Positions 7,826 to 62,690 are shown, counted from the first letter of the stretch. The stretch is 64,000 nucleotides of DNA from an uncultured Anaerolineales bacterium (GCA_964510295.1 CAZEBQ010000001.1:829-64828), one strand, 5' to 3'. Notes: generated from the letters alone by a model not told the origin. Program-made: numbers and translations.

Positions 7826-7957
7826 CTACGCCTAATCCTACAACGCTACTTCGCCTTCTTGTCCGCCTGGTGGCCTTCCCAGGCCACCAGGAACAGGCAT
7901 AAACTGCGTTCGCGGCGGCCTGGGAAGGCCGCCGCGCGGAACGTAGCGTCGTAGTAC
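7826..7957. repeat. Nested palindromic intergenic repeat (REP/MITE-like), copy 1
   Basis: Two hairpins, ctggtggccttcccaggccaccag and gcggcggcctgggaaggccgccgc, are flanked by outer inverted arms cctacaacgctacttcg / cgaacgtagcgtcgtag. The element is related to copies at 38680, 39434, 41426, 51603, 57011 and 62572. Confidence 0.65.
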
Positions 7958-8667
7958 TAACGGCCCGGCCGCGTCTGAAGGTGACGTTTCAGACGGACCG
8001 CCCTCAAATCCATCAGGAACGCCTCCAGCGGGAACAGGCGTCCGGGACACTTCGTGTTCTTGAGTTCGCCGTGGCCGACGACGTTGCCGGGCCCGATGTC
8101 GTAACGGTTGCCGAGGGCCAGCACGAGCATCTCGAGAGAGGCCATCTGGGCAGGGGTCGGCGGCGCCAACTCAAAATTGCCGACCAGGCAGATGCCGATC
8201 CCCTCCCGGTTGAACTCAGGATGGTGCGACACCTTGGCGTGAGCGCCCGGGCGCTGCTCGATCCATCGCTCGGTCGGGGTAATCTTGCCATCGGCGGTGC
8301 CCGGCGCGCGGCCGTTGTTGATGACGAAGTGGTAGCCGACTCCCTCGAACCCCTTGCCAATGTGGTTGTGTTTAATGGCATTGAGCGTTGCCGACGGCGT
8401 GGCCGTGTGGTGGACCACGATGTACTGCCATGTCCGGTTCGGCGCCATACCGGCGGGCCAGATGAGCGTCTGGATGGCCGAGGCGTCCGGCAGAACCTCG
8501 CCTTGGGGCGGTGGACGCTTCTCGATCATGTGAACCGAGGCGGCCCAACAGGCCAAGGCGGCCACCGTCATGGCGACGGCCAGCAGCCCCCAGACCTTCA
8601 GCATCCGGGCCACGTCTATTCTCGCGGGCGCCGGGGGAGGCACGACCGTCTGTGGGTTGTCCGTCAT
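7957..8667 (-). CDS. N-acetylmuramoyl-L-alanine amidase (amidase_2 / AmpD-PGRP family) with an N-terminal TM anchor
   Basis: WQYIVVHHTA...GYHFVINNGRAPG...HAKVSHHPEFNREGIGICLVGNF is the classic amidase_2 signature. Confidence 0.8.
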   Translation of the reverse strand: MTDNPQTVVPPPAPARIDVARMLKVWGLLAVAMTVAALACWAASVHMIEKRPPPQGEVLPDASAIQTLIWPAGMAPNRTWQYIVVHHTATPSATLNAIKHNHIGKGFEGVGYHFVINNGRAPGTADGKITPTERWIEQRPGAHAKVSHHPEFNREGIGICLVGNFELAPPTPAQMASLEMLVLALGNRYDIGPGNVVGHGELKNTKCPGRLFPLEAFLMDLRAVRLKRHLQTRPGR

Positions 8668-8879
8668 GGCACGCTCACTTCATCGGTGCAGGTCGCAGCC
8701 GCCGGCCACCCTATTATAGTTCCACCCCGCCGGGCCGTCCAGACAGGATTCGTCGTGGACTTGTGGCGCCCGGTGTGCGATGGATATGATGTGCGGTCCC
8801 GGACGGCCGGCGATCAAGACGCCGGCCCCGTGCAGTCGTACAACTACAGACCCGACGTGCAACCGGCCGAGATAAGGGT

Positions 8880-10433
8880 GTGAACGTGCTTTGGCGGAAA
8901 CGGATCCTGCTGGCGGCGTTGTGCGCTGTTGCCCTCGCGGCGTGGAGCCGACCGTCTGCGCGCGCCGCCGAACCGGTCAGCCCCGTTGCGGTCCGCACGG
9001 CGGCCGGCCCGCAGGTGTGTCTGGTGACGGCCGAGGGTCCGCTCGGCCTGCCGGCGGCCTACGCCACCGGCTTTCTGTTCGGAAACGGCAAGTTCGTCGT
9101 GACCGATCTGGCCTCGGTGGCGCAGCCGGGCGTGACGCAGGTGACCCTCCGGTTTCAGGACGGCACCACGACCGTCTGCCGCGAGTTCGGCATGGCCGAC
9201 CCTGCCATCAGTCTGGTGGCTATCCACGTGGCGAAGCCAAGGGAAGACGCCGGTGGCCTGACGCTCTCAACCGAGACGCCGACGGATGAGGACCGCACGC
9301 CGGCCGTGGCCCTCGGGTGGAAATGGGGACGGCAACTCGACCTGACCATCGGCCAACTGACGAACGGCGTTTCCGGCGCCGCCCTTGCCGAACGACTGCA
9401 GATCGCGGTGCCCGCAGGCCCGCTGAGGTTCCTGGTCTTCCTCAATCCGACGCATGAGATCGCGCCCGGCGCCCCGATCATCGACGGCGGGGGACGTGTG
9501 GCGGGTATCCTCGTCGACGTCCTGGGTTCCGAGAAGACCCTCGCGGTGCCGGCCCCGCTTCTGCGGGCCGCGCTGCTGACGGCCGGGGCACAACTGAAGC
9601 CGCTCTCGCATCTCCCCAAGCCGATCTGGCCCACCGTCGTCCAGGACCTCGCCGGCAAGCCGACTACCCCGCAGGGGTTCGCGGCAGCCGTGCGGGCGGT
9701 CAAGACACGCAGCCGATGCCGGCAATGCAAAGGCAGCGGCAAGGTCGTTGTCCGGAAAGTCGTCGGCTACAACCGCTTCGGCGGCCTCTCGCAGCCCATC
9801 TACGAAAACGTCACCAAGGTCTGCACCGCGTGTCAGGGGGAAGGCGTGGTCTGCGGCAAAGGGCTCTACGCCTACTTCGCCCGCATGGCCGAGGGGGCGA
9901 CGCGGCTGCTGGCCTCGCCTGCCACACCCGAGAAGGCCAGGGTGGCCGCCATCGCCAACGGCCGGAGCCTTCTCGACGCACTCGGAAAGATCGGTCGCCA
10001 CTATCGCGACGATCTCATTGCCCAGGCCAAGGTTGACCTGTCGAAGCCCGGCGGGACGTTCCCGCGCGGTGTCGTCGTCTACGCCCAACTGCGCAAGGAC
10101 GTCAAGGGACCGGACGGCACGTACACGCTGCTGGCGCCTCACAAGTCGGCCACGGACCTGGTTGTCCGGTCGGACCGGCTCCGGGCAGCGCTCGGCGAGA
10201 AGGCGGACCCCAAGGACGCCGGACCCGTCGAGGGCGACTGGATCGTCCTGGCGGGGCTGGCCGAGGGCACGGTCACACTCAAAGGCCGGCAACCGGTTTA
10301 TCTCAGACCGTTCGGATGGACCTGGGGACCGAGCCTGGGCCCGCGTCCCGCTACGGCGCCGCCGTCAACGCATACCGGACGCCCGCACCATAAGGGTCCG
10401 AAGAAGGGCGAGCCGAGTTTCTTCGGCCTGTGA
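8880..10433 (+). CDS. Secreted protein combining a degenerate DegP/trypsin-like (S1C) domain with a DnaJ-type CxxCxGxG zinc finger
   Basis: A signal peptide MNVLWRKRILLAALCAVALAAWS is followed by GFLFGNGKFVVTDLASV and GAPIIDGGGRVAGILV, which align with S1C motifs but lack the catalytic His and Ser. CRQCKGSGKV and CTACQGEGVV repeats follow. Confidence 0.5.
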   Translation: MNVLWRKRILLAALCAVALAAWSRPSARAAEPVSPVAVRTAAGPQVCLVTAEGPLGLPAAYATGFLFGNGKFVVTDLASVAQPGVTQVTLRFQDGTTTVCREFGMADPAISLVAIHVAKPREDAGGLTLSTETPTDEDRTPAVALGWKWGRQLDLTIGQLTNGVSGAALAERLQIAVPAGPLRFLVFLNPTHEIAPGAPIIDGGGRVAGILVDVLGSEKTLAVPAPLLRAALLTAGAQLKPLSHLPKPIWPTVVQDLAGKPTTPQGFAAAVRAVKTRSRCRQCKGSGKVVVRKVVGYNRFGGLSQPIYENVTKVCTACQGEGVVCGKGLYAYFARMAEGATRLLASPATPEKARVAAIANGRSLLDALGKIGRHYRDDLIAQAKVDLSKPGGTFPRGVVVYAQLRKDVKGPDGTYTLLAPHKSATDLVVRSDRLRAALGEKADPKDAGPVEGDWIVLAGLAEGTVTLKGRQPVYLRPFGWTWGPSLGPRPATAPPSTHTGRPHHKGPKKGEPSFFGL

Positions 10434-10495
10434 CTCTGCCGGCCGATCACGGGCGGCGCTGGACACCGGGCCCGAGATCCGGTACATTCGGCGCG

Positions 10496-11230: not shown

Positions 11231-12247
11231 ATGACGACGTTCGGGCGTGTCGCTGTGACGGTCGCGGTGGCGGCGGTCCTGGTGGGAGTCACCGCGCTGG
11301 TTGCGCATCTGTTGGACGTGCCGGAAGCGACGTCCAACCTGCCGGCGCCGTCGGTCACCGTCGAGACGCCGAGCACGACCGAGGAACTGGGACCGCCCCC
11401 CCAGCCTCCTGCCGAGCCCAAGCCGCCCGACGCGGCGAAACCGCCCGTGCCTGCCGAAACGCAGCCGCCCGACGCGGCGAAACCGCCTGCGCTTGCCGCA
11501 GGGGACGAGCAGCAGACTGACTCGGCCGGCGCCGGGGCCCAAGCGGCCGACGAAGGCCTCGCGATGGTGCGCGACCGCCCGGTCGCCGCACAGAAACGGC
11601 TCAGCCAGGCCGTCCGCGCGGGGGTCGTCGGGCTCAAGGCCGCCGAGGTCCGCGAGGCCATCAAGAACCTGGCCGACAAGTTGCAGTTGTCGTCACGCCG
11701 GCATCCTGACGATACCTACTCCAAGGGGTACCACGTGGCTTCAGGCGACACGCTCACCAGCATCGGCGAGCGGCACTGCATCCCGTACGAACTCGTCATG
11801 AAGGTAAACCGCCTGTCCACAACGAGCATCGTGGCCGGCCAGACGCTCAAGGTTATCCAGGGGCCGATCCACATAGAGATCCTGAAGGGCCGCAAGGAAC
11901 TGCGGGTCTGGCTCGGCGACGTCTGCCTGCGGACGTATCTGGTCGGCATCGGAGCAGCGGACTCGACGCCCGATGGAGTGTTCATCGTCAAGAGCAAGGT
12001 CCAAAATCCGCCGTACCAACCGCAGCACAAGCCGAAGTCGGAGTTCCGCGCGGCCGGGGCACCCGACAATCCGCTCGGGACGCGGTGGATCGACATCGGC
12101 AACCATTATGGAATCCACGGCACGATCGAACCCGACAGCGTCGGCCGCAGCGTATCCGAAGGCTGCATTCGCCTGCACAACAAGGACGTCGAAGAACTCT
12201 ACGACATGGTCGTCATCGGTGCGACCAAGGTCACCATCCGGCCATAG
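11231..12247 (+). CDS. LysM-domain L,D-transpeptidase (YkuD family) with a Pro-rich linker
   Basis: A TM segment and PPDAAKPP repeats are followed by LysM (YHVASGDTLTSIGERH...) and an Ldt catalytic region ending ...SEGCIRLHNKDVEELY. AAGGAG lies upstream of ATG 11231. Confidence 0.8.
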   Translation: MTTFGRVAVTVAVAAVLVGVTALVAHLLDVPEATSNLPAPSVTVETPSTTEELGPPPQPPAEPKPPDAAKPPVPAETQPPDAAKPPALAAGDEQQTDSAGAGAQAADEGLAMVRDRPVAAQKRLSQAVRAGVVGLKAAEVREAIKNLADKLQLSSRRHPDDTYSKGYHVASGDTLTSIGERHCIPYELVMKVNRLSTTSIVAGQTLKVIQGPIHIEILKGRKELRVWLGDVCLRTYLVGIGAADSTPDGVFIVKSKVQNPPYQPQHKPKSEFRAAGAPDNPLGTRWIDIGNHYGIHGTIEPDSVGRSVSEGCIRLHNKDVEELYDMVVIGATKVTIRP

Positions 12248-20993: not shown

Positions 20994-21204
20994 GACGGAT
21001 GCTCCCCGCCGGGGGGCGAGGTAGCCGCGAAGCCCCGGCCGTGGACCCGAAGCGCTGACCTGCGTGAGATTGGTGCGCGCCGGGTCGGCCTAGCCGCCGC
21101 GCACATGCGCCGTTATGCGCGGCGGGTGCCGAGACCACCGCCGAAGGTCGTACGCGCTGGGAGCCGGCCTCCCGGCCACGTGCCACACGGCCCGTAGTAC
21201 GTGT

Positions 21205-21330
21205 TTAGCGTGTCATTCCGAGCGAGCGAAGCGAGTCGAGGAATCTCGCCGTTATCCGTGTCCAGACGACGAGATTTCTCCGCTCGCCCTCGCCTTTGGC
21301 GAGGGCTCGGTCGAAATGACATCGCTTCGA
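21205..21330. repeat. Structured inverted-repeat element (candidate small RNA or MITE)
   Basis: tgtcattccgagcgagcgaagcgagtcgaggaatc ... gccctcgcctttggcgagggc ... ctcggtcgaaatgaca, with terminal inverted repeats tgtcattccgag / ctcgg(tc)gaaatgaca. It lies just upstream of the dtxR promoter. Confidence 0.4.
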
Positions 21331-21413
21331 GAGGAGGCTAAGCACGTACGGGCCGCGCGGGCGCGCAGGGGCACCCGTGAACGGTCCCGGCGAATTCCCG
21401 CCCAAAAAGGGGC

Positions 21414-38672: not shown

Positions 38673-38679
38673 GCGGGCC

Positions 38680-45919: not shown

Positions 45920-45973
45920 GAACGCGCTGTGGACGCGCACGGGCCAAGCGCCTGCGCCGCGATCGACGGGCCT

Positions 45974-46100
45974 TGTCTGCCCTGGAGTCGCGCTACCCTT
46001 TCACTGCCCCCGCCGTCAGGCCGCTGATGAACTCGCGCTGCAGCATGATGAACAGGGCCATCACCGGCAGAATCGCCGGCACCGCCCCCGCCATCCGGAT
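45974..46100 (-). pseudogene. C-terminal remnant of a carbohydrate ABC-transporter permease (MalG-type)
   Basis: Reverse-complement translation gives ...GPTFGIRMAGAVPAILPVMALFIMLQREFISGLTAGAVKG*, the conserved tail of sugar ABC permeases. The frame upstream is interrupted and overlaps the start region of the next gene. Confidence 0.4.
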
Positions 46101-46190
46101 GCCGAAGGTCGGTCCGACGCCGTTTTCCCTTCCCAACCGGCGCCACTGGCGATACCGTTTTCGGGACCTTTACAGTCGGGGAGGCACACC

Positions 46191-48605: not shown

Positions 48606-50275
48606 AGCGGCCGGAGCGTCACCTCGCCGAGGCGGCGGCGGACCTCGTGTTTCATGACCTTCAGGGTGGTTGTGCGGGGGAACTCGCCCGGCCACACGCC
48701 GAAGCGATTCGGCCGCTTGTAGTCGGCCAGACGGGCACACGCCCCGCGTATCTCGTCGCGGAGCAGGTCCTCGCAGTTCGCGGCGTGTTCCGGGCCGAGC
48801 GCTTCGTCATCCACGGCCACCAGTGCGACGATCTCCTCGTCCACGCCGGCGCCCTCGCCCGTGCGGACGCCCAGAACGCACGTCTCGCGGACGTGGGGGC
48901 ACAGGCCGATCTCGGCTTCGATCTCCGCCGGGTACACGTTCTTGCCGGACTCGCTGACGATGACGTCCTTGAGCCGCCCGACCACGTAGAGGTAGCCCTG
49001 TTCATCCACGCGGCCGAGGTCGCCGGTCGCGAGCCAACCGTCTTGAAGGACGGCGGCGGTGGCCTCGGTGTCCTCGAAGTACCCGGCCATGACGTTTGGC
49101 CCCCGGACACAGATCTCGCCGATGCCGTCGCCTGTGCCATCGGGCGTACGCGTTCTCACTTCCACGCCGGGAAGCGGCTTGCCGACGGAGCCGAAGGCGT
49201 AGTGCGTCAACGTGTTGCATGAGACGACCGGGGCCGCTTCCGAGAGGCCGTAGCCTTCGAGGATCGGCAGCCCCAACTGTGAGAAGAATCGCGCAAGACG
49301 CCCATCCAGCGGCGCGCCGCCGCAGATGAAGAACCGCATCCTCCCGCCGAACGCACGGTGAACCTGCCGGAACAGCACCCGGTCGAGCCGAAGGCCGACA
49401 CGCCGCGCGCCCGGCGCCACGCGGCGGCTGGCGTCAAAGAGAAGCCGCTTCCATCGCGGCTCCGACCTGAGCGCCGAGAGGATACGCTTCCGAAGCAGCC
49501 TGGCCATCGCCGGCACCATCAGCACGAGCGTGGCCTCGCAACGCCGCATCGCTTCGAGAAGGGTCCGCGGATTCAGCGACCCGGGATACGTGACGCTCGC
49601 ACCGACGATGAGCGGGATGAGCAGGCCGGCCGTCTGCTCGAACAGGTGATTCAGCGGAAGAATCGAGACCAGCCGGTCGTCGGACCGGACGTCCATCCAC
49701 TGTGTGCCGGCCACCGCATTGGACGTGAGGTTCCCATGGGTCAGCACGATGGCCTTGCTCGCGCCGGTGGTGCCGGAGGTGAAACTCAAGACCGCCGTGT
49801 CGGCGCCTGTCACGTCCGGCGCGCTTGCCGCCGGGACCGCCGGCGACGTGTCCGCCTCGGCTTCGGCGAGCAGGTCCTCGATCGTCATGATGGTTACACG
49901 GCGCGAGCCGTCCGCGGCGTCGCCGGCTGCGGCGGCGAGGGGCCGTGAAACCAGGAGGAGGTGCGTGCGGCTGCGCCGAAGGATGCCGCGGATCTCGGCG
50001 CGCTTGAGGCGCGCGTCGATGGGCACGCACACAGCCCCCCGCAGATGGATGGCGAAGTAGGCAACGGCCCATTCCGGCCGGTTCTCGCAGAGCAGGGCCA
50101 CCGGCGTGCCCTTCGCCACGCCGCAGGTCGCCAGACGGTCTGCCACGCCCGCCGCGTGTGCCCCGAGGCCGCGATACGTGTAGGCGGGGGCCCCGGCGTC
50201 GCCGTGCTTTCGCAGAGCCAGACGGTCGCCGAACGTGCGGACGCCGTGGGCGAGGATTTGCGGAATCGTTTCCAT
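48602..50275 (-). CDS. Long-chain fatty-acid--CoA ligase (AMP-dependent synthetase/ligase family)
   Basis: LSFTSGTTGASKAIVLTHGNL (AMP-binding motif I), ...YGLSEA..., ...TGDLGRVDEQGYLYVVGRLKD... are canonical FadD motifs. Confidence 0.8.
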   Translation of the reverse strand: METIPQILAHGVRTFGDRLALRKHGDAGAPAYTYRGLGAHAAGVADRLATCGVAKGTPVALLCENRPEWAVAYFAIHLRGAVCVPIDARLKRAEIRGILRRSRTHLLLVSRPLAAAAGDAADGSRRVTIMTIEDLLAEAEADTSPAVPAASAPDVTGADTAVLSFTSGTTGASKAIVLTHGNLTSNAVAGTQWMDVRSDDRLVSILPLNHLFEQTAGLLIPLIVGASVTYPGSLNPRTLLEAMRRCEATLVLMVPAMARLLRKRILSALRSEPRWKRLLFDASRRVAPGARRVGLRLDRVLFRQVHRAFGGRMRFFICGGAPLDGRLARFFSQLGLPILEGYGLSEAAPVVSCNTLTHYAFGSVGKPLPGVEVRTRTPDGTGDGIGEICVRGPNVMAGYFEDTEATAAVLQDGWLATGDLGRVDEQGYLYVVGRLKDVIVSESGKNVYPAEIEAEIGLCPHVRETCVLGVRTGEGAGVDEEIVALVAVDDEALGPEHAANCEDLLRDEIRGACARLADYKRPNRFGVWPGEFPRTTTLKVMKHEVRRRLGEVTLRPL

Positions 50276-50358
50276 GCCTCCAGCGTATCCTAGGGCGGCG
50301 GCGGGCCCGGTCAAGGGGCATTCCCGACGAGGGCTTGCACTCAGACGAAACCGGACGT

Positions 50359-51573
50359 ATGGTCTGCCTCGAAGGCGCCGAGGCGTTTCCGGGAAGGGGT
50401 GCTGTGTCTCGATCGGTCCGAGTCCTGGCCGTTGCGTTCTTCGAGAGCGCTGCGACGATCTTTATCGAACGTGGCCTGTACTTCTACACCCACGAGCGGC
50501 TGGGCTTCACGGGCACCGAGAACCTTGGGCTGGCACTCGCCTGGGGCGTCGCATACGTGGTCGGAGCGCAACTTAGCCACGGCGCCTCCAAACGCCTCTC
50601 CGAGAAGGGGCTGCTTGTCCTGACGCTCCTGGGTCAGGTCATCGGCCACGCCGTGCTCTGCGTGTGGGCCGGGCCGGTCGCGGTGGTTGCCCTGGCGATG
50701 GCCATCGGCTGTATCGCGGGCCTCAAATGGCCCGTGCTGGAGAGTTACGTCGCCGCCGGCCGCACCCCCAAGGACCAGGCAGGGGCACTCGGACGCTTCA
50801 ACCTGTCGTGGGCGGGGGCCGTGCCCTTGGGGCTGGTGGCGGCCGGCCCGTTGATCGCGTGGCGGCCGGAGGCGCTGTTTGCGGCGGCGGGATGTTTGAG
50901 CATCGTCAGCCTGGTCCTGGCCCGGCCCCTGCCGAAGCGGCTCGTCCACCTGCCGCACGACCATCCCGAGCGGCCCAACACCGGCGGGATGGCCCGGTAC
51001 CGAGGCCTGCTCGTCTCGGCCCGGTGGTCGATGCTGACGGGCTACTCGCTGATGTGGATCCTGGCGGCGCTGCTGCCGAGCGTGTTCGAGGGGCTCGGCG
51101 TGGGTGTGGCCTGGGCGACGGCCCTGTCGGGCCTGCTCGACGTGTTCCGCTTCCTGGCGTTCCTGACGCTGGGGCTGTGGCGCGGCTGGCACAGCCGCAG
51201 CGTCCCGCTGGCGCTGGTGATCGTTGGGTTGCCGGCAGGCTTCTTCATGGCCCTGTTCGGGGGCGACATGGCGACGGTGCTCGGCGGCGAACTCCTGTTC
51301 GGGGCCGCGGTCGGCATGACCTACTACGCGGCGCTGTATTACGCGATGATCGTCAAGAACGCTGCGGTGGACGCCGGCGGGTCGCACGAGAGCCTGATCG
51401 GCGCGGGCTTTGCCATCGGACCGGCGTCGGGCCTCGTCGGGAACGGGTTAGCCCCGGCGGTCGGTGGCCCCGTCGTCGGCCGCCTCGTTGGCGTGGCGCC
51501 GCTGGTGGTGGTCTGTGCCATCGGCGCCGCCGTGGCGCTCGTGAAGGTGGTGCGTGCGGGGCCGCCGACCTGA
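50359..51573 (+). CDS. MFS-type transporter (about 12 TM helices)
   Basis: A hydrophobic 404-aa protein with repeated TM segments. It is divergent from the fadD-like gene across an ~85-bp spacer. Confidence 0.65.
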   Translation: MVCLEGAEAFPGRGAVSRSVRVLAVAFFESAATIFIERGLYFYTHERLGFTGTENLGLALAWGVAYVVGAQLSHGASKRLSEKGLLVLTLLGQVIGHAVLCVWAGPVAVVALAMAIGCIAGLKWPVLESYVAAGRTPKDQAGALGRFNLSWAGAVPLGLVAAGPLIAWRPEALFAAAGCLSIVSLVLARPLPKRLVHLPHDHPERPNTGGMARYRGLLVSARWSMLTGYSLMWILAALLPSVFEGLGVGVAWATALSGLLDVFRFLAFLTLGLWRGWHSRSVPLALVIVGLPAGFFMALFGGDMATVLGGELLFGAAVGMTYYAALYYAMIVKNAAVDAGGSHESLIGAGFAIGPASGLVGNGLAPAVGGPVVGRLVGVAPLVVVCAIGAAVALVKVVRAGPPT

Positions 51574-51602
51574 GCAGTCCGACGTGGCCCCCTTGGAGTT
51601 GG

Positions 51603-51674
51603 TGCGCGGCGGGTCTCCGGACCCGCCGCGAATGTGGGCCGGTAAGCGCGGTGGGTGCCGAGACCCGCCGCACA
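51603..51674. repeat. REP-like hairpin pair
   Basis: gcgcggcgggtctccggacccgccgcg and gcgcggtgggtgccgagacccgccgc. Confidence 0.65.
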
Positions 51675-51700
51675 AAGCGCCCGCGCAACCGTGAACTGCT

Positions 51701-51976
51701 CTACGGCCCGGACTCGTTCGCCTTGCGTGCCTTCTCAATCAGTTCGATGAGGCTGGCCGCCTTGTCCTTCGGCGGGGCCAGGATGCGGGCGATGTCGTCT
51801 TGGCTGAAGTGCCGCCGGATAAAGGCGGCGATGTCGAAGGTCTCCCCCCAGCAGTCGGCGATGCGGCCGCACGGTAGTCGGCGGCCCGGCGCGCGGCAAT
51901 ACGAGAAGGGGACGTCGTGGCCGAGCATGGGGCATCGGCGTTGCCTGCCGTCGTGCGCGGTGATTTCGTCGGCCAT
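51701..51976 (-). CDS. Small Cys-rich hypothetical protein (91 aa)
   Basis: ...CPMLGHDVPFSYCRAPGRRLPCGRIADCW... looks like a metal-binding Cys cluster. Several overlapping ORFs in other frames make the choice of frame uncertain. Confidence 0.3.
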   Translation of the reverse strand: MADEITAHDGRQRRCPMLGHDVPFSYCRAPGRRLPCGRIADCWGETFDIAAFIRRHFSQDDIARILAPPKDKAASLIELIEKARKANESGP

Positions 51977-52054
51977 CTCGGCGCTCCACCGAACGGGGCG
52001 GGGCCGACCGCCCTCGAGACGGCCGGCCCCGGAGTTACCATTTGCCGGATGCCG

Positions 52055-53446
52055 TCAGGACAGGCTCTTGGCGACGTCCTCCGGTTTCGGAAAGTCTTTG
52101 ATGGCGGCCAGGCTCTTCAGCATCTCCTCCTCCGGAAGCGGGTAGTCCACCAGTTTGCCGTGGAAGAATGCGTCGTAGCCCGTCAGGTCCATCAGTCCGT
52201 GGCCGGACCAGTTGAACAGGATCACCTTCTCCTTGCCCTCTTCGGTGGCCTTGTTGGCTTCCTCGACGACGGCGGCAATGGCGTGCGCGGTCTCGGGGGC
52301 GGAGATGAACCCTTCGGTCCGCGCCCAGGAGACCGCCGCCTCGTAGCAGGTGAGTTGTTCGTAGGCGCGCGGCTCGAGCAGGCCTTCCGTAATGGCCAGG
52401 CTGAGCAGGGGCGCCATGCCGTGATACCTCAAGCCGCCGGCATGAATGGGCGGCGGAACGAAGGTGTGACCCAGGGTGTGCATCGGCAGAAGCGGCGTCA
52501 TCCCCGCCGTGTCGCCGTGGTCGTAGGCGTAGGGGGCACGGGTCATCGTCGGGCAACTCGTGGGCTCGACCGGAATAATCGTTATGTCTGCACCGGCGAT
52601 CTTGTCGGCGAGGAACGGGAACGCCAGGCCCGAGAAGTTCGACCCGCCCCCCGCGCACCCGATGACCACGTCAACCGCGTTCTCGCCGAGCAACTCGAGT
52701 TGCTTCTTGGCCTCCAGGCCGATGATCGTCTGGTGCATGAGCACATGGTTCAGCACGCTGCCGAGGCTGTAGCGCGTCATGCCGGTGGGGTCGGTGACGG
52801 CGGCTTCGATGGCCTCGCTGATGGCGATGCCGAGCGACCCGGGGGTGTCGGGCATCTTCTCGAGGATGGCCCGGCCGGCGTTGGTCTCCGGGGACGGGCT
52901 CGGAATGCACGTGGCTCCCCACGTCTCCATCATCAGGCGGCGGAAAGGTTTCTGGTCGAAACTGATGCGGACCATGAAGACCTTGCACTCCAGCCCGACC
53001 AGCGCACAGGCGAACGCCAGCGCGCTGCCCCACTGGCCGGCGCCCGTCTCGGTAGTCAGACGCTCCATGCCGAACTGCTTGTTGTACCAGGCCTGGGGGA
53101 CCGCCGTGTTGGGCTTGTGACTGCCGGGAGGTGAGACGCCCTCGTTCTTGTAGTAGATCCGCGCGGGCGTGCCGAGGGCCTTCTCGAGACGGTGCGCCCG
53201 GTACAGCGGGCTCGGCCGCCACAGCGACAGCAGCCCCAGAATCTCCTCCGGGATGTCCACCCACCGGTCCGTGCATACCTCCTGCTCGATGAGGTTCATG
53301 GGGAACACCGGCGCCAACATGTCGGGCGAGATGGGCTTCCCGTCGGGCCCGATGGGCGGCAGCGGCGGGTGCGGCAGGTCGGCTGCCAGATTGTACCACT
53401 GGCGCGGCATGTCCTTTTCGCTCAAGAAAACTTTGGTTTGGTCCAT
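52055..53446 (-). CDS. TrpB-like pyridoxal-phosphate enzyme (tryptophan synthase beta, TrpB2 type), standalone
   Basis: [25 protein letters not shown]...[19 protein letters not shown]...GCAGGGSNF... matches the TrpB2 subgroup. No other trp genes are nearby. Confidence 0.85.
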
Positions 53447-53722
53447 GGTATTCTCCTGATAGGGGTCTGTGATTGGCTCGGGGTCGCCGTGCCTTCTGCG
53501 CTCGCATGTCGCCACGGCGGACTACAGGCCCGCGGCAAGTGGGGTAGAGATACCCGAAGTCTCCCCTCTATGGCAAGCGGAATCCGCGCCGCTTGCGTTC
53601 GCCGGTGACCGGCGCGGCCAGGGTGCACCTTGCCGGTTGACTTGAAAGGTCGGGCGGCAGGCAATGGACGATTGCCGCCGCAGGACGGTCGCGTCCGGCC
53701 CGAACGGGCCGACGGCGCGGCC

Positions 53723-53929
53723 TCACACCTGAAGGCGAGTGACGTTCTCGGCTTTAGCGCCTTTCGGGCCTTGCGTCAACTCGAATTCCACATCGTCGCC
53801 TTCGGCGAGGGTTTTGAACCCGTCGCCGGCGATGCTCGAGTAATGAACGAAGACGTCGTCTCCCCCTTCCTGTTCGATAAACCCAAAGCCCTTCTGATCG
53901 TTGAACCACTTGACTTTGCCTCGTGCCAT
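53723..53929 (-). CDS. cspA: Cold-shock protein (CspA family)
   Basis: [33 protein letters not shown]... contains the RNP1/RNP2 motifs. Confidence 0.9.
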
Positions 53930-53957
53930 GCCTTGAAACCTCCAGACTCCGAATCAC

Positions 53958-53998
53958 CAAAAAAACCACCCGGCCAAGCGGAGAACCTCCGCCGGGTG
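53958..53998 (-). terminator. Terminator-like hairpin plus U7 inside the cspA 5' leader (putative attenuator/thermosensor)
   Basis: Minus-strand reading gives ccacccggcggaggttctccgcttggccgggtgg ttttttt (9-bp GC stem plus T7), ~25 nt upstream of the cspA RBS GGAGGT. Confidence 0.45.
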
Positions 53999-54236
53999 GC
54001 TCAAGCACACAGCCTTAACACGGCCAAACGTGAACGTGGCCGGTACGAGTTGATGCGGCCGACAGGCAACAAACCTCTCGCGCTCCTCTACAACCTTCCC
54101 CAGTCTAGCCACATCGCAGTTGCCGGTCAAGAAGAAAAAGTGCGCGTTGCGCGCGGGAAAGTCGCCTTTTGACTTGCCTGAAACGGGCCCGGCGCCTACA
54201 CTGCCCCACTTGTGGACCCGGGTTCGGGCGGTTCGG

Positions 54237-55310
54237 ATGTTCTGTGCGTGCAGCGGGAGTATCGGTGACGTGACGCGAGTCAGGGCGACATGGCTCGGGG
54301 CGGGCGCCCTGACGCTGGCCGGGGTGGTCATTCTGGTTGCGGTGGGAGGCTGCGAACCTCAGGCCTGGCGCAACCAGGACGGAACCATCGTCACCGGAAA
54401 GATCGACTATCAGAAAGAGCCGGTCACCGGCCGGACGTACCATCTCTATGTTCCGAGAACCTATAACCCGAAGCGCCAGTATCCGCTTGTCCTGACGGCT
54501 CAGGGCACGTTCCCCTTCGACGAGGCGGCCGGCCAGCGCAACCGCTGGACCGACGTGGCCGAGCGGTACGGTCTGATCATCTGCTCGGCCGATTTCGATT
54601 CCGCCACCGGCTGGCTTGGCGTGCCGAACGACCGGCCCGCTCCCGAACTCGTTCGCGACGACAAGGCCGCCATAGCCATCATCCGCGAACTGAAATCACG
54701 CTACAACATCAACCCCGACGCGCTCATGATCACCGGTTGGTCGGGCGGGGGCTATCCGGCCCATTACATCGGGCTCAACCATCCCGACGTGTTCCGCTGC
54801 ATCGTCGGCCGCGCCGCCAACTTCAAGGAAAACCTCGTGACCGACGACGTGGCGCTGCGGGCGCGCCAGATGCACGTCTACGTCTTCTTCGGGGCCGGAG
54901 ACCTGCCTGGCTTCGATCAGATGAACCGCGACGCCAACTTCTGGTACACCGTCAGGGGGTTCCGCAACTTCGTCATCCGACGCCTGCCGGGCGGCCACGA
55001 CCCCAACCAGGTGGAGGCCGCACGCTATTTCCTGAACATCGTCAACCACTGGCCGGCCGTTCACATCGACGCCAGCACCACCAAGGGCAGGGCGCCGCTG
55101 ACGGTCAGGTTCCGCGCCCTCGTCCGCGACCCCGACTCGCCCGACGGACGAGTCGATTCGGTGCTCTGGAACCTCGGCGACAACACCGTCTCGGCCCGGG
55201 CCGAGGTCACCCATACCTACACCCGGCCCGGCCTCTACAACGTGTTCCTGACGGTGGTGGATCTCGACAATCATCATGAATATACCCAGACGTGGGTCCG
55301 CGTGAACTGA
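54237..55310 (+). CDS. Alpha/beta-hydrolase esterase (PHB-depolymerase/esterase-like) lipoprotein with a C-terminal PKD domain
   Basis: A lipobox AVGGC and GWSGGG (GxSxG) are present. The C-terminal ...LTVRFRALVRDPDSPDGRVDSVLWNLGDNTVSARAEVTHTYTRPGLYNVFLTVVD is a PKD-type module. Confidence 0.6.
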   Translation: MFCACSGSIGDVTRVRATWLGAGALTLAGVVILVAVGGCEPQAWRNQDGTIVTGKIDYQKEPVTGRTYHLYVPRTYNPKRQYPLVLTAQGTFPFDEAAGQRNRWTDVAERYGLIICSADFDSATGWLGVPNDRPAPELVRDDKAAIAIIRELKSRYNINPDALMITGWSGGGYPAHYIGLNHPDVFRCIVGRAANFKENLVTDDVALRARQMHVYVFFGAGDLPGFDQMNRDANFWYTVRGFRNFVIRRLPGGHDPNQVEAARYFLNIVNHWPAVHIDASTTKGRAPLTVRFRALVRDPDSPDGRVDSVLWNLGDNTVSARAEVTHTYTRPGLYNVFLTVVDLDNHHEYTQTWVRVN

Positions 55311-55338
55311 CCGTGCGGCCCACGCGTCCCCTTTGGGC

Positions 55339-55367
55339 TTGATTTGCCCCGCTTGCCGACCTAAAAT
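55339..55367 (+). promoter_or_regulatory. Putative metK promoter (TTGATT-17-TAAAAT), followed by a ~70-nt structured leader
   Basis: cTTGATTtgccccgcttgccgaccTAAAATgcc. The leader has nested stems ttggcg...cgccaa and ggcgct...agcgcc before RBS GGAAGGAG. Confidence 0.4.
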
Positions 55368-55442
55368 GCCAGCCTTGGCGCTGATGGTTTCGAGCGCCGA
55401 CTAACGCCAACCCAGACTACTTTTTACGGAAGGAGCACAGGC

Positions 55443-56669
55443 GTGGCTAAGAAGGACGGAACCTCGCACCCTGCGTTCAGCCTGCCGGAAGGCCACACCC
55501 TCTTTACAAGTGAGGCGGTTACGGTGGGCCATCCCGACAAGATGGCCGACCAGATATCCGACGCGGTCCTCGATGCCATGATCGGCCAGGACCCGACCAG
55601 CCGCGTCGCTTGCGAGACCCTTGTCACCACCGGCATGTGCGTCGTGGCGGGCGAGGTGACCACGAAGGCGCAGGTCGATATCCGCGACGTCGTCCGCGGC
55701 ACGATCCACGACATCGGGTACACCGACGCTGCCATGGGCTTCGACTTCGAACATTGCGCCGTGCTCCTGGCGCTCGACCGCCAGAGCCCCGACATCGCCA
55801 TGGGTGTCGATGCCTCGGAGGGCAAGGAGCAGGGGGCCGGCGACCAGGGCATCATGTTCGGCTACGCCTGCCGCGAGACACCTGAACTGATGCCCATGCC
55901 CATCCAATTGGCACACCAGTTGTGCATTCGCCTCAAGCAGATTCGCGAAGCCGCCGAGGTCCGCTGGCTGCGGCCCGACGGCAAGAGCCAGGTCACCGTC
56001 CAGTACGACGAGAACGGGAGGGCCGTCCGGCTCCACACGGTCGTCGTCTCGACGCAGCACGCCGACCAGGTGGACGGCAAGACCGTCTCCAACGAGGAAA
56101 TCCGACGCGAGATCATTGAGCGGGTCATCAAGCCCGTTGCCCCCGCTGAACTCCTCGACGACGACACCATCTGCCACATCAACCCCACCGGCCGCTTCGT
56201 CGTCGGCGGACCCCAGGGCGACTGCGGCCTGACCGGACGCAAGATCATCGTCGATACCTACGGCGGCAAGGGAAGCCACGGCGGTGGGGCCTTCAGCGGA
56301 AAGGACCCCTCCAAAGTCGACCGCAGCGCCGCCTACATGGCTCGACACGTCGCAAAGAATCTCGTTGCGGCCGAACTCGCCGACGAATGCGAGGTCCAAC
56401 TTGCCTACGCCATCGGCGTCGCCGATCCGTTGAGCATCCGCGCAGATACGAACGGCACCGGCAAGATTCCCGACGTCGCCCTGGCGAAGGTCATCCGCGA
56501 CGTGTTCCCCCTGAAGCCGCGCGAGATGATCGAGTACCTGAACCTCCTGCGTCCCATCTTCCGCAAGACCGCCGAGGGCGGCCACTTCGGCCGCGAACTC
56601 CCCGAGTTCACCTGGGAAGAACTCCGCAAAGTCGACGAACTGAAACAGGCCGCCCGCAACTGGAAGTAG
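55443..56669 (+). CDS. metK: S-adenosylmethionine synthetase
   Basis: [17 protein letters not shown]..., ...[12 protein letters not shown]..., [19 protein letters not shown] are universal MetK motifs. It has a GTG start. Confidence 0.9.
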
Positions 56670-56784
56670 CCGGGCACGGCGCCGCAGGGACCGGATTCCC
56701 CGTGCACCAGGGGCTTGTCAACAGTTGGGTGCTCTACGACAACTCCGGGCCGACGCCGCGCTTCCTGGCGGCGGGAGACAATCG

Positions 56785-56967
56785 ATGACTCGAAAGATCA
56801 TCGGAACGAAAGACCCGGACATTCTCGGTTCGATGGCGGCACTCCGGCGGGCAGCGAAGCGGGCGCTGCGAGAGGGCCTGGAAACCGGGACGCCCGTCTG
56901 GGTCATCAAGAACGGACGCATGGTAGACCTGACACGCGGCAAGCGCCCCAAGGCCCGGGCCCGGTAG
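56785..56967 (+). CDS. Small basic hypothetical protein (60 aa)
   Basis: MTRKIIGTKDPDILGSMAALRRAAKRALREGLETGTPVWVIKNGRMVDLTRGKRPKARAR. Its ATG overlaps (ATGA) the stop of a 28-codon ORF (GTG 56703) reading VHQGLVNSWVLYDNSGPTPRFLAAGDNR. Confidence 0.35.
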   Translation: MTRKIIGTKDPDILGSMAALRRAAKRALREGLETGTPVWVIKNGRMVDLTRGKRPKARAR

Positions 56968-57010
56968 AGCAGCCTGCGAAGCGGGCTGACCGGAGTTCTT
57001 CGAGGTCCGG

Positions 57011-57038
57011 CCGCGGCGGGTCTCCGTACCCGCCGCGA
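57011..57038. repeat. REP-like hairpin (solo copy)
   Basis: ccgcggcgggtctccgtacccgccgcg. Confidence 0.6.
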
Positions 57039-57127
57039 CAGTCGTACCAAAGCGCGCTGGCCTAAGGCTTGACTGCCGGCCACCTGCACCGAGCCTGCCG
57101 AGGGGGATAGGGTGCCGACAACCTGCA

Positions 57128-57874
57128 TCATGGGAGGTTGAAAACATTCTGGCGAGAGGAGTCAATCAGGTCATTCTCGGCCTGATCCAAGACAACCCCC
57201 TTGTATTCGGCATATGCCCCGAGAATACGAAACGCAAACCGCCAGTGCCAGTCCATGAAAAGGAAATCGGTGACCAAGGGACCCTCCTCGATTGTCAGCG
57301 GAGAGGAATGAACAACTCCGCTGAGGAATCTCTGGATCAGTTCGTACTCCGATTCGAAACCAGCCGCTTTGGCCAGGTCGCGGAGGCTGCCAGAGTACCA
57401 GGTGTTGCGCACTTTGCCCTTCTTGTTCGAGTATCTCGCCTTCACCGCCATAAAACGCTTCTTGATTTCCGGTTCCGCATTCGGCCGTTTGGGGCTATTC
57501 CTGACCCGCTTCGCGAGGGCTGTCCTGCTGGCGTCCATCAGATCGATACGGCGTTTTCGCTCGACATCCCTGAAGTCCAAGAACAGTTCTGCTCGCTCGT
57601 CTCGTCTGTTCGGGTCCGCCATGATGTATAGCCCTTGAAGCATCGCGTCGTATATGCTTCGAAGAATCGATGCCGCATCGAACCCATAGTCGGGGACAGC
57701 GTTGTTCCGAAGGACGGCCAAGGAATTCCCGGACGCGACGATGCGCCTCGCGATCATCTCCATGGCAATTGCCACAGAGCATGGAATCTGCACAGCGTTG
57801 AGCTTGACTGTAATTCTGTTGGCAACTGCCCGCTGGTATTCGAGAATATCGTTGTCGGACAAATCCGATGTCAT
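57128..57874 (-). CDS. Hypothetical protein in a low-GC (~50%) island, immediately downstream of lexA and apparently co-transcribed with it. It contains an R-x6-H motif (possible HEPN-like).
   Basis: A 248-aa soluble protein, MTSDLSDNDILEYQRAVANRITVK...ELIQRFLSGVVHSSPL...; no Walker or TM motifs are present. GAGGTG RBS lies 8 nt upstream of the ATG. There is a 30-nt gap to the lexA stop. GC content is clearly lower than the flanks. Confidence 0.6.
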   Translation of the reverse strand: MTSDLSDNDILEYQRAVANRITVKLNAVQIPCSVAIAMEMIARRIVASGNSLAVLRNNAVPDYGFDAASILRSIYDAMLQGLYIMADPNRRDERAELFLDFRDVERKRRIDLMDASRTALAKRVRNSPKRPNAEPEIKKRFMAVKARYSNKKGKVRNTWYSGSLRDLAKAAGFESEYELIQRFLSGVVHSSPLTIEEGPLVTDFLFMDWHWRFAFRILGAYAEYKGVVLDQAENDLIDSSRQNVFNLP

Positions 57875-58498: not shown

Positions 58499-59309
58499 GG
58501 CGTTCCTCCGGAATTCGATGGTGCCCGTATGTGACAGGCGTCGTGCGCGCGGCAGGTACGATGCCGTGGGAACGTGCCCCGCTGCTCCCGCAGCGGGCTC
58601 GAACCGCGGCGGGGTCGAACCGTGGCGCTTGGCCGGCACGGCACATTCGCAGCACGAAACGCGGACGAAGGAGGGGAGGGCCGGAGCGCCCCCCAATCGG
58701 TGCTCCGGCCCCGCGTGGTCTCGCGCCGCCGGTGGGGGCGGCGACGCCAAAGACCGCTGGCTTTCGTCCTGCCGCGCGGCCGGGGCCGGGGTGCGTGGGG
58801 GACACCTCGGCCGGGCCATCGGTGTGCGGCGAGACGTTGGGTGCGCTGACCGGTCGTGGGGATGGCCGCCTGTGGGGCAGGGCGGCCACGAGATGGCGTC
58901 GGCTGCGTCCTGGGCCGGCCGGCGTGCCAGCGCGGGGGGAGGCGGGCGGGCCGAGGGGGGCACGGGTTGCCCTTCGACCGCGCCCGATCCTCTTCCCACG
59001 TGTTCGCTGGCATCGGGCGGCGCAAGCGCCGTCGACAAACCGGTCACTGACCGGCGGCCGTCGAATCGGGCGTGCGGAGTTTGCTTGCACTCCGGTCCGA
59101 GGACCGCTATAAGCGCTTTGGCTGCTCTCGAAAAACGGTTGTCAAAGAGCCGAGTACGACACCCGTCATGATGGGCGGTAGGGTATCCTAACAGCGCCCT
59201 AACGTCAAGAGGTAAATCGGCCTGAGGGCGAGAAAACTTGACCTTTTCTGGCCGAAAAAGCCTAACAGAGTCCTAACTCGTTGTCGGGGGCGAACTTACG
59301 TCGCGATGT

Positions 59310-60455: not shown

Positions 60456-60564
60456 CCGCCGTACGGGCTGGCCATGTCTCGCCGTCAGTCGAGAGAAGAT
60501 TGCACCGAGTGACCCTGTGGCTGCCGGACACGGCGGCTGGACGACCGATAGCAGGAGAACGGCT

Positions 60565-61056
60565 ATGGCAGACGAACAGGCAGCGGACGGGGCCGAATCC
60601 GGCGCCGGCAAGGTTGACCTCGACGCGATCCGGCAACTCCTGACATTGATGGATGAGCACGGCCTCGAGGAACTGGAGATCGAGCACGAAGACATGGCCG
60701 TGCGCCTGCGCAAAGCCGGCGCGAGCACTGCGGCCCCGGTCGCCGCTGCGCCTGCTGCCGCGCCGCCGCCGGCACCCGCCGCCGCTTCGCCCGAGGCCGA
60801 AGCCGATGAGGAGAGCCTGCCGACGATCGACTCGCCGATGGTCGGCACGTTTTACGAGGCGGCCAGCCCGGAGGCCGACCCGTTTGTCCGGGTGGGCAAC
60901 ACCGTGGACGAGTCCACTGTGGTCTGCATCATCGAGGCGATGAAGGTGTTCAACGAGATCCGGGCGGAGAAGAGCGGCACGATCGAGGCGATTCTGATCA
61001 AGAATGCGGACTCCGTTGAGTTCGGCCAGCCGCTGTTTGTCATCCGCCCCGTTTAG
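60565..61056 (+). CDS. accB: Acetyl-CoA carboxylase biotin carboxyl carrier protein
   Basis: An Ala/Pro linker is followed by ...CIIEAMKVFNEIRAEKSGTIEAILIKNADSVEFGQPLFVIRP, the biotinyl-lysine motif EAMKV. Confidence 0.85.
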   Translation: MADEQAADGAESGAGKVDLDAIRQLLTLMDEHGLEELEIEHEDMAVRLRKAGASTAAPVAAAPAAAPPPAPAAASPEAEADEESLPTIDSPMVGTFYEAASPEADPFVRVGNTVDESTVVCIIEAMKVFNEIRAEKSGTIEAILIKNADSVEFGQPLFVIRPV

Positions 61057-61185
61057 CAGTTGCCCGAGAGCGTGCGCGGCGGGGCTGCCGGCGTGCCGCG
61101 AGAGGGGTGGCCGAGCCTGGGTGCCGAGCGGGCAAACCCGACACCCAAGGAACCAGGCGGTCTCTGGGCCGGCCGGGGAGAGAGC

Positions 61186-62523
61186 ATGTTCTCACGTATC
61201 CTGGTGGCGAATCGCGGCGAAATCGCCTTGCGCATCATCCGGGCGTGCACCGAGATGGGCATCGAAAGCGTCGCCGTCTATTCCGAGGCCGACCGCGGCG
61301 CCCGGTACCTCGACCTGGCCGACGACACCATCTGCATCGGCCCCGCGCCGCCGGCCCAGTCGTACCTGAACACCTCGCGGATCATCTCGGCGGCCGAGGT
61401 GGCCGACGTCGACGCCATCCATCCCGGGTATGGCTTCCTGGCCGAGAACCCGCACTTCGCCGAAGTGTGCCGCTCGTGCAACATCGAGTTCATCGGTCCG
61501 AACGTCGAGGCCATGCGCCTCGTGGGCGACAAGGTCCAGGCCAAGGAACTCGCCCGCCGCGCCAACATCTACACCATTCCCGGCTCCGACGGGGCACTCG
61601 ACAACGTGGACGAGGCCATCGGCCTGGCCCGCCAGATCGGTTACCCCGTCATCGTCAAGGCGGCAGCGGGCGGCGGCGGGCGCGGCATGCGCATCGCACA
61701 CAACGACATCTCGCTGACCCAGGCCGTCGGACAGGGACAGTCCGAAGCCGATGCCGCTTTCAAGGACGGACGCGTCTATCTCGAAAAGTACCTCGACGGC
61801 GTCCGCCATATCGAGGTCCAGATTCTCGCGGACTCGCGCGGCGCCTGCGTCCATCTGTGGGAACGCGACTGCACGTGCCAACGCCGGCATCAGAAACTGA
61901 TCGAGGAATCGCCCTCGCCCGCCATCAGCGACCGCACCCGCGCCAAACTCTGCGATGCCGCCGTCCGGATGGCCAAGGAGGCCGGCTACACCGGCGCCGG
62001 AACCGTCGAGTTCCTGGTGGACAAGGATGAGAGATTCTACCTCCTGGAAGTCAACGCCCGCATCCAGGTCGAGCATCCGGTGACCGAACTCGTGACCGGC
62101 ATCGACCTCGTGGAGCAGCAGATTCGCGTGGCCGCCGGTGAGCGGCTGCCGTTTCGCCAGAAGGACGTGCCGCAGAAAGGGTGTGCCATCGAGTGCCGCA
62201 TCAACGCCGAGGACTGCTTCAACGATTTCCGCCCGTCGCCGGGCGTCCTGGAGCGGTTCTGCGTCCCGGGCGGGCCGGGGGTCCGCGTCGATACCCACTG
62301 CTGCCAGGGGTGGACCATCTCGCCTCAGTACGACTCGATGATCGCGAAACTGCTCGTCCACCGGCCGACCCGCGCCGCCGCCATCGTGACCATGCGCCGG
62401 GCCCTCTCGGAGTTCGTCATCGAGGGCGTCCAGACCACCGTCCCGCTGCACATGGACATCATGTCGAACCCCGATTTCAACGCCGCACGCGTCGACACCG
62501 GCTGGGTCGAACGCGTCTGGTAA
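61186..62523 (+). CDS. accC: Acetyl-CoA carboxylase biotin carboxylase subunit
   Basis: [21 protein letters not shown]..., ...[10 protein letters not shown]..., ...[11 protein letters not shown]..., ...[15 protein letters not shown]... are all present. Confidence 0.9.
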
Positions 62524-62571
62524 GCGGCGTGACTGAAAGTTCGCCGCATCAAAGGCGGTGGGATTAACACT

Positions 62572-62690
62572 ATAGCGCCACTTCGCGCGCGGCGGGTCTC
62601 CGTACCCGCCGCGCAGCCCCGCAAATGGCCCTTTACACGCGGTGGGTGCGGAGACCCACCGCGCGAAATGCCTAGGTGGCGCTGTGGTGT
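62572..62690. repeat. Nested palindromic REP/MITE-like element after accC
   Basis: Outer arms tagcgccacttcg / ctaggtggcgctgtgg. Inner hairpins cgcgcggcgggtctccgtacccgccgcgc and cgcggtgggtgcggagacccaccgcgcg. Confidence 0.7.

Follow-up and report, generated by a model that had tools for sequence, protein, structure and literature searches.

Small non-coding mobile elements with paired REP-like hairpins in a clade of uncultured, probably planctomycetal, bacteria

Repetitive extragenic palindromes (REPs), bacterial interspersed mosaic elements (BIMEs), REP doublets forming hairpins (REPINs) and miniature transposable elements with inverted repeats (MITEs) are all well known, and what is new here is one further family with an unusual combination of features. 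We found it in a 64,000-nt stretch of DNA (66% GC) from an uncultured Anaerolineales bacterium (GCA_964510295.1 CAZEBQ010000001.1:829-64828), hereafter the window, a term that always means this whole stretch. The family consists of non-coding mobile elements of ~130 bp with one or two GC-rich hairpins each; these are elements of an ordinary kind in a little-studied bacterial group, and in the literature we found no description of this family, nor of REP or MITE families in Phycisphaerae. Among described systems, the Correia elements of Neisseria measure ~100-150 bp, have inverted repeats, lie beside genes, are co-transcribed and can form a long hairpin. The elements of the window resemble them in size, inverted repeats, gene-adjacent insertion and the long hairpin, but Correia elements duplicate TA, have 26-bp arms and no internal REP-like pair, and belong to an unrelated host group.

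MITEs derived from the insertion sequence (IS) IS5 are likewise ~130 bp long and non-coding, with inverted arms, a bias to non-coding DNA and a 4-bp YTAR target duplication, which is the duplication that IS5 makes (PMC5009759). The family differs from them in that no IS5 parent or transposase was found in the sequence surveyed, the interior is a conserved REP-like pair and not IS remnants, and the arms covary. With the REPINs of Pseudomonas fluorescens SBW25 and their REP-associated tyrosine transposases (RAYTs; Bertels & Rainey 2011, PMC3116915), the family shares inverted REP-like pairs with a short fixed spacer, an extragenic location, copies that probably number hundreds per genome, conservation across species and genome-specific sub-populations; unlike them, it has no GTAG tag and no flanking RAYT that we could find, and it does have outer arms, a target duplication and a difference between a C and a T form of the hairpin. 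The Y- and Z-type REPs and BIMEs of Escherichia coli (PMC2817692) offer a similar mosaic of hairpin types in alternating orientation, two pairing stem variants, and sites both at operon 3' ends and inside operons, but their sequence is different, BIMEs are not known to have terminal inverted arms or a target duplication, and for the present family nothing points to binding by IHF, gyrase or Pol I. Di Nocera et al. (2013, PMC3733652) report GTAG- and CGTC-tagged REP superfamilies from Planctomycetes too, R. baltica among them, in a study that leaves untagged palindromic families as an open class and notes odd composites of degenerate REPs and unrelated stem-loops. These REPs are also short GC-rich stem-loops, often dimers, in the Planctomycetes-Verrucomicrobia-Chlamydiae (PVC) group, but the hairpin described here is untagged.

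An earlier note on this DNA had listed seven hairpin loci and proposed that they form a REP or MITE family peculiar to the lineage. We derived a covariance model from 14 full-length copies (2 from the window and 12 from related genomes); scanned over the whole window with filters off, it returned exactly those seven at E<0.01, all of which contain the described hairpins, and added one marginal locus (21049-21163). That locus is among the four decayed copies in Table 1, absent from the earlier list, that we found by eye and by repeat search. The core of the hairpin, GCGGCGGGTCTCCNNACCCGCCGC, is matched exactly at 5 places in the window and nearly at 2 more, the near ones in inverted orientation, and 100 dinucleotide-preserving shuffles gave 0 matches; for the second hairpin, GCGGCGGCCTTCCCAGGCCGCCGC, 2 exact matches stand against 0 expected. 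Folded as single-stranded DNA, intact copies far exceed shuffles in stability, with z from -5 to -8.4 (the single hairpin has -3.3). At the gathering score, Rfam matched only tRNA-Asp in the window and nothing in three element-rich loci. Of the loci listed earlier, 57011-57038 is a lone hairpin and not a composite, and 41426-41636 is two elements, one nested in the other. An exact-match scan with one genome per species placed the core in at least 109 stretches over at least 13 species-level metagenome-assembled genomes (MAGs); among the matches listed, 13 MAGs hold 3-17 stretches each and six more hold one each. The family is repeated far beyond the window and restricted to a clade, which supports the REP or MITE family of the earlier note, and it is insertionally polymorphic; of the note's two proposals the evidence leans to a MITE.

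We surveyed 694 kb of loci fetched from related genomes (numbered with L) together with the window (~760 kb in total), and distinguish three sets of outer arms, arm-1 to arm-3, and two hairpin types, type-1 and type-2. Fifteen complete arm-1 elements from the window and related loci have arms of ~16 bp, CACTACAACGCCACTT...AAGTGGCGTTGTAGTG; in short form, their ends with the flanking tetranucleotides read YTAR, CACTACAACGC...GCGTTGTAGTG, YTAR. Thirteen of the 15 are 129-141 bp long (mode 130) and two are longer (160 and 209 bp), and single-hairpin versions of 86 bp with the same arms and ends occur in L030 and L053. The arms, already noticed earlier, are real inverted repeats (over 14 copies, 87% of the arm helix is paired), and just outside them stand tetranucleotides of consensus YTAR that form direct and not inverted repeats, such as CTAA/CTAA, TTAG/TTAG, CTAC/CTAC and GTAG/GTAG. 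Among genuine elements, the two tetranucleotides agreed exactly as non-palindromic direct repeats in 10 cases and with one mismatch in ~7, and in 0 cases exactly as inverted repeats. This indicates that arm-1 elements bear a 4-bp YTAR target-site duplication, as IS5 makes. Most extra hits of the model have one arm missing or other arms and added little to this test. A duplication of TA alone (IS630-type) was ruled out, since all four positions match as direct repeats and the inner bases of the tetranucleotides are not complementary (the left fourth and right second bases are unpaired in 10/14 copies). Arm-2, which is YTAR followed by GCGGTCCGACATGAGTT, is found on window elements B, D, E and F and on the copy at 21 kb, and arm-3, GTGTTGCCCAA or GAGCCTGTTGCAC, carries type-2 hairpins.

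Comparison of filled and empty sites used the closest fetched relatives, whose DhaL is 90% (L115), 79% (L116) and 73% (L118) identical to that of the window. The earlier note had one copy splitting the dhaK-dhaL pair; Pfam confirms both genes (Dak1 and Dak2), and we found the spacer between them to be 12 nt in L115, 14 nt in L116 and 113 nt in the window. Hence, Element B is an insertion of the window lineage into a tight junction. The more distant relative L118 has an unrelated hairpin-rich insert of 177 nt (L118:9824-10000) at this junction, which was thus struck independently at least twice. Between dhaL and deoC, L116 and L118 have an empty site, the window has an arm-1 element and L115 has a different, arm-3 element, and the spacer upstream of dhaK is without an element in L116 and L118. 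Since close relatives have empty sites, the elements are insertions. Loop and spacer variants are genome-specific, each MAG having its own dominant one. These nested, tandem, polymorphic and genome-specific copies show ongoing insertion and turnover and not conserved orthologous structures. For Element G, no empty site was found among eighty AccC loci from metagenomes, where synteny 3' of accC is not conserved and tRNA-Asp occurs in none, and the divergence between the window and L012 is too great for an exact empty-site comparison. A type-1 hairpin doublet was also seen inside an open reading frame (ORF) at L043:2742-2800, and the ortholog L103:961-1014 is without it; the two differ in length by 63 nt, so the insertion appears in-frame and tolerated.

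The repeated unit is a hairpin of 24-28 nt, GCGG[C/T]GGG-top-CCC[G/A]CCGC (short form GCGGCGGGTCTCC), and three different tops stand on one common stem base, GCGG[C/T]GG...CC[G/A]CCGC. It is a GC-rich, extragenic palindrome in many copies, as classical REPs of 20-40 nt are, and two inverted units with a short spacer give the layout of a REPIN. Among 232 cores in the survey, neighbouring cores form 62 head-to-head pairs versus 2 tail-to-tail pairs, and the doublet spacers fall into discrete classes of 18, 24-26, 32 and 36-41 nt. The stem is either C-type (GCGGCGGGT/ACCCGCCGC) or T-type (GCGGTGGGT/ACCCACCGC): 42 of 56 doublets join a C-type with a T-type hairpin, 13 are C+C and none is T+T. The C-G to T-A change of the T-type is compensated within the hairpin (T stands with A in 54 copies and is uncompensated in 6), so that each small hairpin is perfect. 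Paired with each other, hairpins 1 and 2 have an invariant C.A mismatch (14/14) and a G.T wobble (13/14), and the minimum-energy folds alternate between two small hairpins inside the outer stem and one long hairpin. The hairpin flanks are GC/GCGC, (T)GC...GC(A), with no GTAG or CGTC tag.

Cores lie outside ORFs in 160 of 232 cases, although 84% of the sequence is coding, and another 49 are in ambiguous 5' ORF extensions. Their flanking genes are tandem for 66, convergent for 41 and divergent for 8 cores, and we found no bias in their orientation relative to the upstream gene. YTAR is 8-fold denser in non-coding than in coding DNA of the window (3.7/kb versus 0.45/kb), and the terminal tetranucleotide of arm-1 elements contains the neighbouring stop codon in 6/19 elements. 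Copies were said to sit always directly after a stop codon or in a spacer that is not divergent; a start at a stop codon is literally true of five of the eight clear window elements (A to E), the preference for non-divergent spacers stands with rare exceptions, and the preference for YTAR accounts for the elements at stop codons. Termination, a role suggested earlier, finds no support: no T-run follows the hairpins, and terminator-like sites in window 37400-57300 occur at chance (14 found, 12.5 expected), none of them at an element. Hence, with no T-tails, the elements are not classical intrinsic terminators.

We favour, as fairly probable, the reading that this is a family of MITEs with a REP-like hairpin pair as cargo, inserted with a 4-bp YTAR target duplication. 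The elements have the small non-coding size, the terminal inverted repeats, the target duplication (arm-1) and the presence/absence polymorphism that mark MITEs. A transposase supplied in trans would make a 4-bp staggered cut at YTAR, and joining the element at this cut would leave the tetranucleotide duplicated. Since the 4-bp YTAR duplication is the signature of IS5, the enzyme is probably an IS5-like DDE transposase, an assignment drawn from the duplication. YTAR would be rare in a 66% GC genome, with TAA and TAG stops supplying many of the sites; being rare, denser outside genes and supplied by stops, it would lead elements to land at stops, between co-directional or convergent genes. This would be a simple mechanistic reason for small elements at stop codons in high-GC genomes, YTAR being nearly confined there to stops and spacers. 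The hairpins, carried as cargo, would be transcribed at mRNA 3' ends or within operons such as dhaK-dhaL, where they may stabilise or attenuate the message, a putative role; at the latter site, Element B adds a hairpin of -40 kcal/mol along with the longer spacer, which could shift the expression of one subunit relative to the other. As to its origin, the hairpin may be a descendant of the RAYT-associated REPs with a GTAG tag that occur in the same clade.

Several findings weigh against this reading. A crude search of ~760 kb of related sequence, by tblastn with an InsH sequence, found neither an IS5-like transposase nor a complete IS bounded by these arms. Separately, unpaired arm matches considered as IS ends proved to be degenerate MITEs or false hits. 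Several terminal tetranucleotides are off consensus (YTGA, with a TGA stop, and a few YTAC), and no exact empty site from a near-identical strain is available for any arm-1 element. For the other arm sets, evidence of duplication is weak or inconsistent: the sole two-armed arm-2 copy (L077) has CTAA...TTAG, which is inverted and not direct, and the direct repeats flanking arm-3 have a length of 8 bp in the window against 5 bp in L115. Seven of 16 arm pairs are changed on both sides between copies, a covariation unlike plain transposase-binding ends, which hints that the fold-back structure itself is maintained, and the same hairpin doublet recurs in at least three arm sets; neither the covarying arms nor this reuse is fully explained by a MITE, and the same holds for the C/T asymmetry of the doublets; all three may fit, as a less likely alternative, a REPIN-like or protein-dependent upkeep of the family, or a mixed history. 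Lastly, at least 13 species share one identical core although their proteins have just ~75-80% identity, which suggests that selection or homogenisation is still at work in addition to simple selfish spread.

Some of these points would fit a REPIN/REP population moved as single-stranded DNA by a RAYT, an HUH transposase, with the hairpin pair as the mobile unit and the outer arms incidental, which we regard as unlikely though the best of the alternatives. REPINs are laid out in the same way as the head-to-head doublets with their fixed spacers (PMC3116915), and a core kept across many species is what vertically inherited REPIN-RAYT systems have. Element B lacks a clear second arm or duplication, as a RAYT product might. 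The clade does have RAYT genes, and the MAG of L003/L110, which encodes P0001, also bears a type-1 hairpin. None of the RAYT genes we looked up, a limited sample of six genes in eight loci (P0061 in three, L111-L113), adjoins this hairpin, however, and a cognate RAYT elsewhere is possible; the flanks of five (P0001, P0061, P0045, P0003 and P0047) all carry GTAG-tagged REPs with a different sequence, for example GTAGGGTGGGTGCnnnGCACCCAC, and L202 (P0030) shows a CTAC-ended, AGCCCCAGCCTAC-type repeat. In the window, tblastn with an E. coli YafM sequence, an approximate query, found no RAYT, and the only match among the related loci was L003. The cognate RAYT that the earlier note had proposed to look for was thus not found linked to these hairpins. 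HUH transposition makes no target duplication, so the duplication around arm-1 elements speaks against a RAYT, as does a hairpin without a GTAG or CGTC tag; the GTAG-REP sequence GTAGGGTGG has no occurrence in the window. In favour of a RAYT, REPs of the form GTAGGGTGGGTGC...GCACCCAC beside clade RAYTs look similar to the T-type stem GGTGGGT/ACCCACC, and a GTAG REP at L126:3814 (GTAGGGTGGGTCCTCCGGACCCACGCG) has a nearly type-1 T-type top. A common origin of GTAG REPs and the T-type hairpin is plausible from this short GC-rich similarity, and the L126 repeat may be an evolutionary link or a gene-conversion hybrid. As an observation in its own right, the RAYT (Y1 transposase) genes at L003:3-509 (= L110:3001-3558), L200 (P0003), L111 and L114 lie on Planctomycetota-type contigs and are flanked by arrays of GTAGGGTGG-type REPs, with five tandem 40-nt copies upstream in L111.

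A somewhat more doubtful proposal makes the hairpin doublet, and not the arms, the persistent replicator: a descendant of a RAYT-type REP that has lost the GTAG tag and rides at least three DDE-type arm chassis. If true, it would link the REP/RAYT and MITE/IS worlds, the C/T asymmetry with the covarying arms would point to a fold-back intermediate that the element requires or to a binding protein of its own, and no such system would have been described in Planctomycetota before. The remaining possibility, that these are immobile host-encoded hairpins evolved in place as terminators, mRNA 3'-end protectors, or nucleoid-protein or gyrase sites, is improbable, for although they favour gene 3' ends and convergent spacers and are rare in divergent promoter regions, fold very stably, and have a strictly conserved stem base with the compensated T-type change, their presence varies at orthologous sites among close relatives, they are nested and in tandem, bear a target duplication and genome-specific sub-variants, have neither a T-run nor an orientation bias, and in one case (L043) appear to sit in-frame inside an ORF.

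As for the family itself, its spread was gauged in the eighty AccC loci, chosen by AccC similarity and so unbiased with respect to the element. There are 7 cores in the 121 kb of contigs whose AccC is at least 75% identical, 0 in the 278 kb where AccC is below 70%, and 7 in the 64 kb of the window. Hence, with core density falling to 0 in distant contigs, the family is clade-restricted, and by extrapolation from this sample copies probably number hundreds per genome. The core was not found in viral contigs. Core-bearing MAGs are named Phycisphaerae, Planctomycetota or Planctomycetia by independent submitters, and the name 'uncultured Anaerolineales' comes from one pipeline. Proteins of the window are 75-80% identical to those of these 'Anaerolineales' MAGs, with which it is also syntenic, and its DhaL, which has no record of its own in the protein collection searched, is nearest to proteins named Planctomycetes (best relative 90% identical). 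Judged by these matches, the host lineage is probably Planctomycetota. The family provides repeat annotation for this clade of uncultured Planctomycetota-like (probably Phycisphaerae) genomes, is usable as a marker for binning and strain typing, and is a source of assembly breaks in these MAGs, with many copies at contig ends.

The individual copies of the window and the genes around them are collected in Table 1. Element A and the decayed copy before it stand in tandem with a CTAA junction common to both; Element A consists of CTAA, the arm TCCTACAACGCTACTT, a T-type hairpin TGGTGGCCTTCCCAGGCCACCA at 7868-7889, a C-type hairpin at 7912-7935, the other arm and CTAA, and its right CTAA holds the TAG stop of an amidase gene (minus strand, 7957-7959). 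The copy at 21 kb is downstream of an SGL/gluconolactonase gene, and the doublet upstream of dhaK folds no better than shuffles. Element B, which the earlier note began at 38680 (38680-38760), starts directly after the dhaK TAG stop with arm-2-like GCGGGCCGAC, followed by a T-type hairpin (38688-38711), an 18-20-nt spacer and a C-type hairpin (38732-38755), and has the third hairpin top, GGGCAGTCCTGCCC. Element C runs CTGA, which includes the dhaL TGA stop, then CCTACAACGCCACTT, a C-type hairpin (39455-39478), a spacer, a degenerate T-type hairpin, AAGTGGCGTTGTGGTA and CTAA.

Element D begins after a TAG stop (41395-41397) with arm-2 GCGGCTCGGATGAGT... and a C-type hairpin (41430-41453), and its second hairpin, GCGCGCTGGGCCCCGATAC / TCTGCTGCAC, is interrupted by the nested type-2 element. 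The latter has arms GTGTTGCCCAA (41490-41500) and TTGGGCAACAG (41609-41619), hairpins at 41526-41549 and 41569-41590, and the direct repeat CCCGATAC on both sides (41481-41488 and 41623-41630). Element E opens right behind the MFS gene's TGA stop (51571-51573) with arm-2-like GCAGTCCGACG...GAGTTGGTGC; then come a C-type hairpin at 51606-51629, 18 nt of spacer and, at 51648-51671, a second hairpin in inverted orientation. The decayed element between accB and accC reads GTTGCCCG ... CGGGCAAAC, with a degenerate hairpin at 61074-61101, and Element G runs TTAA, CACTATAGCGCCACTT, a C-type hairpin (62589-62612), a 26-nt spacer, a T-type hairpin (62639-62662), AGGTGGCGCTGTGGTG and TTGA.

Table 1. Copies of the repeat family and neighbouring genes in the window (fold z against shuffles; E from the covariance model)
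Feature	Position	Strand	Basis
Decayed arm-1 / type-2-hairpin copy	7707-7831		Direct repeats at 125-nt spacing; alignment to 7828-7962
Element A, 129 bp	7832-7960		z = -6.45; E = 5e-13
Decayed type-1 doublet with arm-2-like left flank; marginal	21049-21163		73% identity repeat; E = 0.02; z only -1.6
Decayed hairpin doublet upstream of dhaK	37535-37610		Repeat search; E = 8
dhaK (Dak1)	37659-38672		Pfam
Element B, between dhaK and dhaL	38673-38760		z = -6.0; E = 7e-5
dhaL (Dak2)	38786-39433		Pfam
Element C, 130 bp, arm-1 class	39430-39559		z = -8.4; E = 3e-25
DeoC-type aldolase	39699-40628		Pfam
Element D (outer), type-1 doublet	41398-41640		Repeat search, fold, model scan
Nested type-2 element inside D	41489-41622		z = -5.1; E = 2e-6
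Pectate-lyase-like gene	41641-43074		Pfam
MFS transporter	50158-51573		Pfam
Element E, between convergent genes	51574-51676		z = -5.05; E = 1e-8
metK	55443-56669		Pfam
Element F, single C-type hairpin (57013-57036) preceded by arm-2-like GCGGGCTGACCGGAGTT	56981-57038		z = -3.3; E = 2e-4
accB	60517-61056		Pfam
Decayed type-2 / arm-3-like element filling the accB-accC spacer	61057-61135		Repeat search
accC	about 61186-62523		Pfam; domain starts at ~residue 43 of a long ORF
Element G, 130 bp, arm-1 class, between accC and tRNA-Asp	62564-62693		z = -7.05; E = 2e-27
tRNA-Asp	62741-62817	minus	Rfam match

Other repeats were seen in the same sequences. A canonical GTAG-tagged REP doublet of a different family, GTAGCGCCGGGGTTTATCCCCGGCGC ... 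GCGCCGGGCATGAAGCCCGGCGCTAC, lies at window 62982-63071, bracketed by the direct repeat cccaatcggcgatgcggg at ~62925 and 63095, and has several copies in L005 and one in L004. A further element with inverted arms, GTAGTACGTGTTTAGC-gtcattccgagcgagcgaagcgagtcgaggaatc ... ggtcgaaatgac-GCTAAGCACGTAC, occupies window 21186-21355; its segment 21199-21253 is 100% identical to L101:1-55, and the same family interrupts an L115 element and occurs in L126. A further repeat family, gagcccgcYgcggaagcRgcgggt ... ggatgaggatgacc ... ccgcttccgcggcgggctcg, is present at L096:1700-1850, L096:2990-3080, L105:6980-7150 and L124:3800-3900. Hence, these genomes carry many distinct small-repeat families.

The ~800 bp at window 58510-59300 are without a convincing coding sequence and have no Rfam match at E<=1, and blocks of them are conserved with the syntenic L012 (~78% flanking protein identity), whose counterpart has a type-1 hairpin and two tandem half-hairpins inserted; this region may be an unannotated non-coding RNA or a long leader. 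The DUF5677 gene at window 57128-57874 (minus strand), which adjoins the hairpin at 57013-57036, has a third-position GC below that of its neighbours and is missing from L012, and may be a recent acquisition. Finally, two tandem 42-nt copies (86% identical) at window 11408-11491 lie in a coding region and encode a proline/alanine-rich repeat.

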